From a virus (taxonomy: Duplodnaviria; Heunggongvirae; Uroviricota; Caudoviricetes), in the IMG/VR virus record IMGVR_UViG_2565956633_000004, positions 1 through 35,210 of that record: a stretch of 35,210 nt of DNA, one strand, 5' to 3'. Of the stretch, positions 26,496 to 32,581 are shown in pieces. The notes under the pieces were generated by a model. The model did not search any database and had not been told where the DNA came from. It saw nothing but the letters and a program-made list of their open reading frames with translations. The position numbers and the translations under genes are program-made. The first letter of the stretch is position 1. Each line of letters opens with the position of its first letter.

Positions 26496-27043
26496 GCGTT
26501 AGTTTCTCCACAGTCACGACACGCCACGGCGCCCGGAGCTGCACACTCGCGGGCGTCACTACTTTCTGAAACGCAAAAGATTTTGTAGACCAGTGCTGCA
26601 TGCTCCTGCAGCTTCGAAATTGAGAGGTACAGCTCATCGTTAATTGCTGTCTTCTCATGCGGTTCCACTACACCGTCTTCAATTGCTGAACGAATCTGTT
26701 TTGAATAACTGCCGATCTGTTCAATGACCTCCAGCAGGCGTTGGTTGATATCGGCGTTGTCCACATCCTCGATGTCAGGAAGAGACACAAATACGCCATT
26801 TGCAGACTGCGCCACAGCATCAGCAATGAAGTGAGTGCCACCAGCACGCTGTAAAACCATTGCCCATCCCAGCGGGAAAATCTGATCGCCATCTGCACGA
26901 AGGCGGTTGAATAAAGCGTTTTCTGTTACATCGAGCCAATCAGCCGCTTCAGCGTAACCACCCGGCAACGCCGCGATAGTTTTTCTGACAGCTTTCACGT
27001 ACCACTCAGGCTGTTTTTCTATTTTCCAGTGATGCTTACCCAC
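26492..27043 (-). CDS. Putative CII-like / YdaT-family early regulator
   Basis: 183-aa ORF immediately after cro-like gene in the early-right operon; assignment by position and rough recollection only. Confidence 0.35.
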
Positions 27044-27296
27044 GGTTCACCTCCTGTTCCTGTGGTTTAAACCCATTCTGGTTTTGGCTAGATTGAAAAC
27101 GTGCCGGATAAAGAATCTGCATTTCGCTGATTTCACCCTTAAAAAAATTGGCTAAACGTTCTGCAAGCTCGATAGATGGAATCTGCTCCAGCCTCTCAAT
27201 ACGACTCAACGTCGCTGGATTGACTTGAACACCCGCAGCAACATGCTGCAAAGTGAAACCATGCGCCTTACGCACATTTCGTAATGGTGATTGCAT
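27036..27296 (-). CDS. Cro-like HTH repressor
   Basis: 86 aa, HTH (GFTLQHVAAGVQVNPATLSRIE); GGAGG RBS; divergent from cI across an operator-rich region. Confidence 0.65.
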   Translation of the reverse strand: MQSPLRNVRKAHGFTLQHVAAGVQVNPATLSRIERLEQIPSIELAERLANFFKGEISEMQILYPARFQSSQNQNGFKPQEQEVNRG

Positions 27297-27393
27297 ATAT
27301 CCTCCAAATATTGCGCGTTATGCATGTTATTTCACGCAAGTATTTTGCGCAAGTTGATTTGCTTATCACGCAATAAAGAAATGTAATAAACGC
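27297..27393. promoter_or_regulatory. Immunity-region operator/promoter block (divergent cI and cro promoters)
   Basis: Repeated CGCAA/TTGCG half-sites (ttgcgcg, cacgcaagtattttgcgcaag, cacgcaa) across the 97-bp intergenic region; cI ATG preceded by TAATAA close enough for a leaderless transcript. Confidence 0.6.
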
Positions 27394-28086
27394 ATGAACA
27401 TAGGAAAACGAGTCAGACAACTTCGCCAAGCGAAGAACATGAAAATCGCCGATCTCGCTGAAGCAATAGGAGTAGATGCGGCGAACATCTCGCGCTTAGA
27501 AACGGGTAAGCAGAAACAATTTACCGAACAAACACTGAGTAATATTGCCAAGAGCTTAGGTGTTGATATTGCTGATCTCTTTACCTCTGCCCTCAAAAGT
27601 AATACTGTATATAAAAACAGTAATGATGAGGATGTTGCGCAGGTGAAGGATGTGTTCCGTATTGAAATGTTGGATATCAGTGCCAGTGCGGGAAATGGCC
27701 TTATCCAGGGCGGTGATGTCATTGATGTGATTCATGCCATCGAATACAGAACTGATAATGCTGTATCAATGTTCGGCGGACGACCAGCCAATCACATCAA
27801 AGTTATCAACGTTCGTGGGGACAGTATGTGTCCAACCATTGAGCCAGGAGATCTCATCTTCGTTGATGTCAGCATCAATCAGTTTGATGGTGATGGTATA
27901 TATGTCTTTGGTTTTGATGACAAAATATACGTTAAAAGACTTCAAATGATTCCTGACAAACTGCTGGTGATTTCTGATAACCAGATTTACCGTGAATGGG
28001 GAATTACTAGCGAAAACGAACACCGATTCATGGTCTTTGGAAAGGTCTTAATCAGTCAGTCGCAAACCCTTAAGAGACATAATTAA
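27394..28086 (+). CDS. CI-type prophage repressor (HTH plus S24 LexA-like autopeptidase domain)
   Basis: 230 aa; N-terminal HTH (MKIADLAEAIGVDAANISRLETGK), C-terminal VRGDSMCPTIEPGDLIFVD...KIYVKRL S24 motifs. Confidence 0.9.
   Translation: MNIGKRVRQLRQAKNMKIADLAEAIGVDAANISRLETGKQKQFTEQTLSNIAKSLGVDIADLFTSALKSNTVYKNSNDEDVAQVKDVFRIEMLDISASAGNGLIQGGDVIDVIHAIEYRTDNAVSMFGGRPANHIKVINVRGDSMCPTIEPGDLIFVDVSINQFDGDGIYVFGFDDKIYVKRLQMIPDKLLVISDNQIYREWGITSENEHRFMVFGKVLISQSQTLKRHN
27603..27622. promoter_or_regulatory. Near-consensus LexA (SOS) box inside the cI coding sequence
   Basis: TACTGTATATAAAAACAGTA, a CTGT-N8-ACAG palindrome with TA flanks; differs from the E. coli consensus TACTGTATATATATACAGTA only in the central AT tract. 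Confidence 0.4.
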
Positions 28087-28103
28087 CTTCAATATCCCAT
28101 CCA

Positions 28104-28128
28104 TCGGCCACCGAAAGGTGGCTTTTTA
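28104..28128 (+). terminator. Rho-independent terminator after cI
   Basis: GCCACC-GAAA-GGTGGC hairpin followed by TTTTTAT, 20 nt after the cI stop. Confidence 0.7.
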
Positions 28129-28140
28129 TCACCCATAATT

Positions 28141-28200
28141 TTGCACATCTCGCAAAATATTACTTGCGTATATCGCATTTTAATTTTATCTTTTGTTCCA
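28141..28200 (+). promoter_or_regulatory. Candidate early-left promoter/operator (pL/oL analog)
   Basis: TTGCAC ... CGCAAAATATTACTTGCGTATATCGCAT: the same CGCAA/TTGCG half-sites as in the cI-cro intergenic region. Confidence 0.45.
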
Positions 28201-28370
28201 GACCAACTACAGGATTACAACAAAATCTAGTTGCAACACGGTGCATGGTGCATGTGTCGTAAGCGGTCAGTAAATGTCAAAAACGAACAGTCAGGACGAC
28301 CACGAAGTAGCCGCCGGTGGCGTATGAATGACCGGATGATTCGTTAAATACTATGTGTAAGAGAGCGCAA

Positions 28371-28574
28371 ATGAACCGTTATTTCACATGCTCGTTTTGT
28401 GGCGCAAACGAGCTGCAGGCAAAAAAAATCATCGCCAAAGGCGGAAAAGATGAAGTTGCTATCTGCTCTGAGTGCGTAGTCTTGTGTGTAGGGGCATTAA
28501 TCAATATCAGCACAACTATTCAGTTCACACCAAATGAGAATGCGCCTTTAGATGCGCGGAAATCTGGAGGTTAA
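28371..28574 (+). CDS. Small ClpX N-terminal zinc-binding-domain-like protein (first early-left gene)
   Basis: MNRYFTCSFCGANELQAKKIIAKGGKDEVAICSECVVLC: CSFCG...K-I-A-G...ICxECVxLC parallels the ClpX C4 zinc-binding domain; no AAA+ module. Confidence 0.55.
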   Translation: MNRYFTCSFCGANELQAKKIIAKGGKDEVAICSECVVLCVGALINISTTIQFTPNENAPLDARKSGG

Positions 28575-28582
28575 AGAACAAA

Positions 28583-28858
28583 ATGAAAGTCCAGATTTTA
28601 AACAATAGTGGTGAAGTCGTTTGGTCATACGACATAGCCGCTCCTGTAGATCAGAGCGGCGATAGCTGGACCAATGGGAAACATCAGATTATGGCTGGAG
28701 TTGTATTCTCTTTACGCCGTGCTTTGGAACAGGCTGAAGTATTTCCATCAGACCCTGAATGGAAATGGCCTTTTTCTATTTGTCCAAATTCGGAGAGCAC
28801 ATTTCAGAAAATTGGTCAGAAAGTCGCACTCGAAGAGCATCAGCCAACTGTTTCCTGA
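28583..28858 (+). CDS. Hypothetical Trp-rich small protein
   Basis: 91-aa ORF 8 nt after the ClpX-ZBD-like stop; GGAGG upstream; 3' end overlaps a convergent ORF. Confidence 0.35.
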   Translation: MKVQILNNSGEVVWSYDIAAPVDQSGDSWTNGKHQIMAGVVFSLRRALEQAEVFPSDPEWKWPFSICPNSESTFQKIGQKVALEEHQPTVS

Positions 28859-29039: not shown

Positions 29040-29458
29040 ATACGGGCTTAAAAGGATACCACCGAGCCTGAAGTGGTGAAAAGACAGGCACATAACAGCT
29101 AAGTATTTTCAACCAGAGAGAATCCTTAGCGTTGTGGTGAATGCGGCTCAGCGCACGCGGGTTAAGGTTGAGGCTGACAGTCGACCTTCTGTGGATACCC
29201 ACCCGCCTGGTGTGCAACCTTCGCCAGGCACCGGGAGGCACCCGGCACCACAACTTTATGCTGTGTGTAGTCTTGGCGGTACCTGCTTGTACCCTTGCTT
29301 CCGGCTGGTACCGTCCTTTTTACAAAACAGAGAAGAGCATCACCGGACGACGGGCTCATAACCCAATCCATCCGGGCGGCAGTCACCGCAGGTGTTCTTC
29401 TCTGTTTTGTGGAGAAACTAACCGACCTTGCAGGGTCGATATGATGAGGAGCAGCAAA
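29040..29458. other. GC-rich, highly structured non-coding region (candidate ncRNA or regulatory leader)
   Basis: No credible ORF (overlapping frames give Arg/Cys-rich junk); nested dyads including a ~19-bp stem (29322-29344 pairing with 29391-29410) enclosing a 46-nt loop, CCGGG-AGGCA-CCCGG, two GGTACC-containing repeats. Confidence 0.4.
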
Positions 29459-32009: not shown

Positions 32010-32581
32010 TGAACAACTTAATGATCGACCTTGAGACGATGGGGAAAAATAAGGATGCGCCGATCGTTTCTATTGGCGCAGTGTTCTTCACCCCAGAAAC
32101 CGGAGACATCGGACAAGAATTCTATGCGGCTGTCAGCTTGGACAGTGCTATGGAGCAAGGGGCCACACCTGACGGCGACACCATCCTGTGGTGGTTGAAA
32201 CAAAGCCCTGAAGCACGAGCTGCAATCTGTATTGATGATACTTTGTCGATCAGCGATGCACTCTCTGAACTGAGCCATTTCATTAATCGGCACGCAGACA
32301 ATACGAAATATTTAAAAGTCTGGGGTAACGGAGCCAACTTCGACAACGTAATTTTACGCGGAGCTTATGAGCGAGCAGGACAAATCTGCCCATGGGCGTA
32401 CTGGAATGATCACGATGCGCGCACGATCGTTACGCTTGGGCGTTCCATCGGATTCGACCCAAAAATGGACATGCCTTTCGATGGCGAACGGCACAACGCC
32501 CTGGCTGATGCTCGTCATCAGGCAAAATATGTTTCCGCTATCTGGCAGAAATTAATTCCTGCCACCAGCACAGAATTATGA
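32009..32581 (+). CDS. DEDD-type 3'-5' exonuclease (DnaQ-like fold)
   Basis: Start at ATG 32009 (AGGAGG RBS): MNNLMIDLETMGKNKDAPIVSIGAVFF (Exo I motif D-x-E), later HNALADARHQA (Exo III motif). Confidence 0.65.
   Translation: MNNLMIDLETMGKNKDAPIVSIGAVFFTPETGDIGQEFYAAVSLDSAMEQGATPDGDTILWWLKQSPEARAAICIDDTLSISDALSELSHFINRHADNTKYLKVWGNGANFDNVILRGAYERAGQICPWAYWNDHDARTIVTLGRSIGFDPKMDMPFDGERHNALADARHQAKYVSAIWQKLIPATSTEL

Follow-up and report, generated by a model that had tools for sequence, protein, structure and literature searches.

LexA and lambda cI dimerise through their C-terminal domains, and isolated C-terminal fragments of these proteins can cleave intact molecules in trans. Coliphage 186 Tum is a LexA-controlled antirepressor, and umuDC is a tightly repressed, late-induced SOS operon. 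Nested in-frame isoforms that are truncated at the N terminus, arise from an internal promoter and start, and are able to interfere with the full-length protein are encoded by the phiC31 repressor gene c and by Tn5 (transposase/Inh). The Gifsy phages are described as LexA-controlled antirepressor systems (PMC7067206). LexA operators are thus known on separate antirepressor genes; none was found, in the literature searched, inside the coding sequence of a self-cleaving repressor together with an in-frame internal start. The locus described here, a cI-type repressor gene with a predicted LexA operator (SOS box) in its coding sequence, lies in a 35,210-nucleotide stretch of viral DNA (IMG/VR record IMGVR_UViG_2565956633_000004, positions 1 to 35,210), which is referred to as the window and corresponds to a lambdoid E. 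coli prophage of the SfII/mEp460/e14-like kind. Over the 801 bp that surround cI (27300-28100), its sequence and the chromosome of E. coli 730V1 are 100% identical.

A predicted LexA operator in the inter-domain linker of cI

The repressor gene, its self-cleavage residues and the box are positioned as follows.
27394..28086, + strand: cI-type repressor gene, 230 amino acids, with HTH_3 at residues 7-62 and Peptidase_S24 at residues 104-218
27603-27622, palindrome without strand: predicted LexA operator (SOS box) TACTGTATATAAAAACAGTA, cI codons 70-77
27688-27693, + strand: cI cleavage site Ala99-Gly100, invariant in the orthologue alignment
27823-27825, + strand: cI Ser144, invariant in the alignment
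27934-27936, + strand: cI Lys181, invariant in the alignment

The protein is 98.7% identical to that of Shigella phage SfII, which is annotated as cI. It has the make-up of a lambda-type self-cleaving repressor, with a helix-turn-helix domain, an S24 domain, an Ala-Gly site and a Ser/Lys dyad. Domain order is also as in lambda-type cI, as are a divergent cro with intergenic operators and a cII-like (cII/YmfL-like) neighbour. The nested operator and start set it apart, and these are specific to the SfII/ST64B/mEp460/phiNP family; HK75 is of the HK022 type.

The box falls between HTH_3 and Peptidase_S24, in the inter-domain linker (residues 70-77), and is read as (AA)T ACT GTA TAT AAA AAC AGT A(AT), which encodes the peptide N T V Y K N S N. 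A sequence-only reading of the same DNA had placed the site in the linker-coding part of cI, in agreement with the 230-residue open reading frame (ORF) and the domain matches, and had counted 18 of 20 positions equal to the E. coli LexA consensus. Alignment of TACTGTATATAAAAACAGTA with TACTGTATATATATACAGTA, the consensus in Table 4 of PMC3009722, gives the same count. A bare CTGT-N8-ACAG is unremarkable in the window, as had been pointed out, with two occurrences where 0.42 are expected; the second, at 32130, is taken as chance and lies outside the 12 best sites of the LexA matrix, of which the lowest scores 5.8 bits. The full 20-mer was scored with this matrix, composed of 25 K-12 operators with umuDC omitted, against a simulated expectation. 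The box reaches 26.3 bits, compared with a maximum of 18.9 bits in 300 Markov-simulated windows, and tops 24 of the 25 training operators of the matrix. The second-best site in the window scores 10.9 bits, leaving the cI box as the sole strong LexA site in 35 kb.

Base for base, TACTGTATATAAAAACAGTA is the operator located ~19-20 nucleotides upstream of umuD in E. coli K-12, and the umuD and sbmC boxes tabulated in PMC3009722 are the same 20-mer. The host encodes LexA (lexA is annotated ~13 kb from the prophage in E. coli 730V1), and the palindrome, A/T-rich spacer and high matrix score are those of a gammaproteobacterial SOS box. The literature searched contained neither LexA-binding data for the cI box nor a description of a LexA box in this cI gene, and no Rfam family matched at the box. 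The 20-mer is very probably a host LexA operator that has been kept by selection.

Selection acts at the DNA level. Orthologues were collected from annotated phages, one genome per species and viral contigs, and 53 non-redundant cI genes were left once those with DNA identity above 95% had been removed. A LexA box of 15-28 bits is present at the same codon position in 50 of them, which share ~46-99% protein identity and come from at least 13 Enterobacterales genera and from unassigned viral contigs. These genera include Escherichia, Shigella, Salmonella, Citrobacter, Klebsiella, Kluyvera and Pseudescherichia, and further Trabulsiella, Buttiauxella, Pantoea, Mixta, Rosenbergiella, Proteus and Serratia. 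The CTG and CAG arms are identical in all 50. Codon choice at the box is strongly skewed relative to the remainder of the same genes, with ACT used in 21 of 21 cases (36% of Thr codons elsewhere), GTA in 19 of 23 (19%), TAT in 16 of 17 (59%), AAC in 14 of 14 (46%) and AGT in 21 of 22 (15%). Codon identity at an unchanged amino acid is 0.79-1.00 over the box, compared with a gene median of 0.47, and the best eight 7-codon windows by this measure all overlap the box.

The linker around the box is the least conserved part of the protein, with an amino-acid identity of 0.1-0.3 on either side, and the peptide over the box itself varies (TVYKNS, TVCINS, TVHINS, TVYNDS, TVQTNS, AADLYS), the changes falling at positions that LexA tolerates. 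The palindrome is retained while the peptide changes, which is the reverse of the pattern, a peptide kept and a palindrome lost to synonymous drift, that the sequence-only reading had said would count against its site. In a population sample of 80 near-identical E. coli viral-contig copies, every copy has a box of at least 23.6 bits.

No LexA box was detected in or near cI of BTP1, PhiR34_1, HK75, phiMhaA1, PhiR49_2 or e14 ymfK, so the feature is specific to this family and not general to cI. Among these is e14 ymfK of E. coli K-12, the nearest well-known relative by neighbourhood. A proper box is lacking in three relatives, two from Dryocola and the repressor of Phaseolibacter flectens. The latter, the most distant of the relatives (40% identity), carries no box within the gene and has lost both Ala-Gly and the catalytic Ser; because of these losses it is probably non-cleavable. 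In the A+T-rich region upstream of the Phaseolibacter repressor gene there is a 19-bit LexA box, TACTGGTTAAATTTTCAGTT (at 1266, L034 1000-1500), which would fit a separate LexA-controlled induction route in that organism.

The internal start and the promoter-like layout

Start and promoter-like signals lie at and downstream of the box.
27580..27585, + strand: putative -35 hexamer TTTACC, 17 nucleotides upstream of TACTGT
27603..27608, + strand: putative -10 hexamer TACTGT, the left arm of the box
27628..27632, + strand: Shine-Dalgarno-like GAGGA, with a duplex of -6.4 kcal/mol with the 16S 3' end, the best in-frame internal candidate of cI
27643..28086, + strand: inferred nested in-frame ORF from GTG (Val84), 147 amino acids, comprising the C-terminal domain only, with the Ala-Gly site included
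27652, + strand: alternative nested start GTG (Val87), 144 amino acids

The box and the downstream start signal co-occur perfectly. All 50 box-bearing genes have an in-frame GTG, ATG or TTG at aligned residues 82-95, 20-55 nucleotides downstream of the box, with a Shine-Dalgarno (SD) duplex of -5.3 kcal/mol or stronger, and no SD-preceded internal start is present in the three box-less relatives. Such an SD-plus-start signal occurs in only 5.6% of the other 17-codon windows of these genes. When the linker was resampled synonymously, p was 0.016-0.25 for single sequences and 7e-7 for all combined. The SD sequences differ by lineage (GAGGA, GGAGA, GAGGG, AGGAG, AAGGGGGG), as do the starts, which are found at positions 82, 84, 86/87, 90 and 95. 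Public gene calls have been made independently at both of these starts, at Val87 (144 amino acids) by ENA on a contig whose 230-residue ORF is intact, and at Val84 (147 amino acids) by NCBI on contig-cut copies. An isoform starting at Met92 was dropped, since Met92 is not conserved.

Among PDB sequences, UmuD/UmuD' matches the C-terminal domain of cI best. Identity to UmuD is 36% over 83 residues, and identity to LexA is 29%, over a shorter stretch. At the sequence level the nested ORF has a UmuD-like layout, with the box ending at 27622, the GTG at 27643 and Ala-Gly 15 residues later.

Promoter-like sequence overlaps the box on the + strand. TTTACN is found 17 nucleotides upstream of the left arm in 37 of 50 orthologues, with TTT as the Phe63 codon in 17 of 18. 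For 15 of 18 orthologues, the highest-scoring promoter-like match on the + strand is TTTACN, TTTATT or TTCAAA followed by 17 nucleotides and TACTGT, with scores of 5.5-8.6; the promoter of umuDC itself scores 8.9. Two orthologues with GACTGT or CACTGT as the left arm have a perfect TATAAT inside the box and a -35-like hexamer 17-18 nucleotides upstream (10.8), and in the Proteus outlier the -10 of the best match lies five nucleotides upstream of the box. The two arms are not equally conserved: position 1 of the box is T in 46 of 50 genes, compared with 32 of 50 for the equivalent base at the mirror position, and the left half is nearer to the consensus than the right. This asymmetry fits an additional role of the left arm as a -10 element. 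A 47-bp fragment consisting of TTGACA, 17 nucleotides and the same box has been reported as a working SOS-inducible promoter (PMC9074414).

The unit is closest to umuDC. The 20-bp operator is identical in both, each has a -35 hexamer and a 17-nucleotide spacer before the TACTGT hexamer that opens the box, the start codon follows the end of the box after 19 nucleotides in umuD and 20 in cI, and the product inferred for cI is, as in umuD, an S24 domain after a short tail with a self-cleavage site. However, the cI unit lies in frame inside a larger repressor gene, whereas the umuDC operator is intergenic; the -35 hexamer is TTGATC in umuDC and TTTACC in cI, and no umuC partner follows cI.

The reading favoured here is that the LexA box overlaps a weak sigma-70 promoter co-directional with cI (TTTACC, 17 nucleotides, TACTGT). 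In a lysogen without DNA damage, LexA bound over the -10 and start region would keep this internal promoter off. DNA damage would lower LexA, and a short mRNA would then start inside or just past the box, at ~27615, and be translated from the SD-preceded in-frame GTG at 27643 or 27652 into an isoform of 147 or 144 residues. This isoform would comprise the S24/dimerisation domain and the Ala-Gly tail without the DNA-binding domain, and it would pair with intact cI or cleave it in trans, with a faster collapse of operator occupancy as the result. It would be an antirepressor encoded within the repressor gene, and induction would depend on LexA depletion plus RecA-stimulated self-cleavage of cI.

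What we infer from this arrangement is that LexA occupies the site, that there is a promoter and a short protein, and in which direction that protein acts. The sequence data give an internal LexA-repressed promoter with a short cI isoform roughly an even chance of existing, and an antirepressor role for that isoform is a possibility put forward more tentatively. From the known behaviour of the C-terminal domains of LexA and lambda cI, the short product would be expected to antagonise the intact repressor, and this is taken as its most likely role. Identity of the operator with that of umuDC, taken with the late induction of the latter, would suggest expression only after strong or sustained damage. 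The family could conceivably be one of lambdoid repressors with an SOS-gated gene within a gene, in which an isoform without the DNA-binding domain poisons the full-length repressor and LexA and RecA are two separate inputs to one locus; this wider proposal is also a tentative one. The unit may descend from a helix-turn-helix domain fused onto a umuD-like, LexA-regulated S24 gene, with the ancestral operator and ribosome-binding site retained.

Weighing of the internal promoter and its rivals

Several observations count against an internal promoter with an SOS-specific product. The promoter scores lie within background, since the best score per 170-nucleotide window averages 6.1 with a 90th percentile of 8.3, and a stricter promoter scan of 26900-28700 was empty, even at the cI/cro control region. 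The -35-like bases double as codons for a conserved Leu-Phe-Thr, and their own conservation therefore does not count as independent evidence. Box and start are lost together in two lineages only, Dryocola and Phaseolibacter. The spacing from SD to GTG84 in the window is long (10 nucleotides), mEp460-type alleles have GTA at codon 87, and the start position shifts between clades. Full-length cI mRNA also carries the internal start and the short form might be made constitutively, which weakens a simple SOS-only model. There is a hint that the start is masked on the long mRNA: the pyrimidine-rich codons before the inferred transcription start (ACCTC, ACTCC, CCCTCC, CTTTTC) tend to complement the SD-like sequence of the same gene (27575-27590 compared with 27625-27645 in the window, and orthologues), but the signal is weak, with -10.1 kcal/mol for cognate and -8.7 kcal/mol for non-cognate pairs, a permutation p of 0.0004 from sequences that are related, and a rise in SD accessibility only from 0.33 to 0.39. 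As for the direction of the isoform's effect, antirepressor or buffer, we infer it purely.

Of the two mechanisms offered by the sequence-only reading, control of an internal promoter gains from the umuDC-like 17-nucleotide geometry and the conserved downstream start. The other, in which LexA within the gene is a mere roadblock or attenuator of cI transcription without an internal promoter, so that cI rises after LexA cleavage and buffers weak or transient SOS, fits less well. It would suit an operator that is strong, conserved and 210 nucleotides into the transcribed region, and it takes advantage of the modest evidence for the promoter; yet it leaves the perfectly co-occurring SD and in-frame start unexplained, as well as the stricter conservation of the left arm and the joint loss of box and start in Dryocola. 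More cI during SOS also runs counter to the mitomycin/UV induction of phiNP and phi1720a-02 (bioRxiv 10.1101/2025.01.01.630987), and a roadblock is considered unlikely. Improbable, too, is control by the box of a minus-strand promoter, from which antisense RNA would run through the 5' half of cI and the cI promoter into cro, giving less cI and repressor-independent cro. A comparable case is the lambda oop antisense promoter, reportedly repressed by LexA. The palindrome with its A+T-rich core yields -10-like hexamers on both strands, and the direction of the effect is biologically sensible. Nonetheless, promoter-like matches on the - strand shift position among the orthologues, the would-be -35 falls in a hypervariable stretch with 3-nucleotide indels, conservation is weaker in the mirror arm than in the + strand arm, and the conserved downstream start is left without a role.

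A further candidate ligand is encoded by the phage itself.
24389..24715, - strand: phage LexA-like protein, 108 amino acids, DNA-binding domain plus a tail of ~30 residues, possible second ligand of the box

The protein exists as the sequence-only reading had noted, being 43% identical to residues 1-86 of LexA, the N-terminal domain, with no S24 domain. If it were the main ligand, an uncleavable protein would, in the lytic phase, irreversibly shut cI or the internal promoter. The recognition helix is mostly kept (RSVNAAVEHLRAL versus RSPNAAEEHLKAL) and the 35-kb window has no strong LexA site other than the cI box, but the proposed tie between protein and box is weak. The gene is not tied to the SfII/ST64B-type cI family and occurs in SfV, SfIV and cdtI without a DNA-level match to the cI region, and in the 40 of 61 matching records listed, the box-bearing ST64B, phiNP and Klebsiella phages Kp4873-4 and P7641 are absent. 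At least 13 Enterobacterales genera have orthologues with the box, and the change of Glu44 to Val in the recognition helix makes specificity uncertain; this reading is judged more improbable still than antisense control. Most improbable of all is that conservation of the box reflects a protein need (a TV..S linker motif) or an mRNA hairpin and that the LexA match is coincidental. Thr71, Val72 and Ser76 are the only invariant linker residues and the 20-mer can fold into a 6-bp stem, but synonymous third positions are fixed far beyond the codon usage of the genes themselves, residues 73-75 vary widely while the LexA-critical bases are constant, and the sequence is that of a validated operator. 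An RNA hairpin was rejected, as the arms are without covariation and seven sequences pair T6 with C15, which breaks the stem.

In the phage LexA-like protein the recognition helix differs from that of LexA by Pro40 to Val, Glu44 to Val and Lys48 to Arg. Its gene lies in a nin-like region between a PerC-family regulator gene and rusA, and is common to phages of other immunity types (SfV, SfIV, cdtI and Stx2c phages).

In its proposed logic the internal promoter and short isoform resemble 186 Tum and Gifsy GfoA/GfhA, in which loss of LexA leads to a small protein that inactivates the prophage repressor. There, however, the antirepressor has a gene of its own, unrelated to that of the repressor, and the repressor does not cleave itself, whereas the candidate in cI is a truncated copy within the repressor gene. 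Since the cleavage site and catalytic residues of cI are conserved, in contrast to the non-RecA-cleavable repressors of the 186 Tum/Gifsy module, the cI unit falls outside that family, though it may function in a similar way. With Ala-Gly, Ser and Lys retained, two SOS inputs would act on the repressor. Neither phiC31 c nor Tn5 Inh is known to be a LexA-gated S24 repressor, and no homology to them is implied.

The cI allele of the window is found in about a fifth of complete E. coli genomes (1040 of 5426), and is also carried by Stx2-converting phages, Shigella phage SfII, Salmonella phage ST64B and Citrobacter phage phiNP. If the favoured reading is true, the threshold of prophage induction would be set by LexA depletion as well as by RecA-stimulated cleavage, in a family that includes Stx2-converting, serotype-converting and effector-carrying prophages, and the same dependence would extend to phage spread and to the release of Shiga toxin triggered by antibiotics. 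The locus would further provide a clear example of selection maintaining a binding site for a transcription factor, and a translation start, within a coding sequence; such nested features are invisible to routine annotation.

Surroundings of cI

Three further features flank the repressor gene.
27036..27296, - strand: divergent cro-like helix-turn-helix gene, annotated as cro in SfII
27297-27393: operator region between the cro-like gene and cI
28106..28123, + strand: intrinsic terminator after cI; SfII has an annotated terminator at the same place

Repeated TTGCGCAA/CACGCAA motifs occur within 27300-27390, and the TTGCGCAA/CACGCAA/TCGCAAAA repeats on both flanks of cI (27297-27393 and 28130-28190) resemble OR and OL operators. 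The cI ATG has no Shine-Dalgarno sequence and lies ~6 nucleotides past a TGTAAT -10-like hexamer; the cI mRNA may be leaderless, as in lambda. The start of cI is annotated variably. Deposits of mEp460, Stx2a_1447, 1720a-02 and phiNP use Met16 (215 amino acids) and not the conserved Met1, and other public gene calls begin at Val84 or Val87.

Just past the cI terminator, at 28353-28574 (+ strand), lies a gene for a 73-residue protein made up solely of a ClpX C4-type zinc finger (Pfam E 1.4e-10); the RefSeq version has 67 residues, and no such gene is annotated beside cI in SfII or JJ1886. The zinc-binding domain of ClpX docks adaptors and substrates such as UmuD. In S. aureus, ClpX is required to complete CI inactivation (Nat Commun 2023, PMC10584840). 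A free ClpX zinc-finger domain beside cI might modulate the handling of repressor fragments by ClpXP.

In the ST64B transcriptome paper, the damage-induced small RNA STnc1310 is placed ~330 nucleotides downstream of cI and not within it. In the window, positions 29101-29324 (+ strand) match the Rfam gammaproteobacterial small RNA STnc100 over the full model length, with 43.5 bits against a gathering score of 47 and an E value of 2.6e-7.

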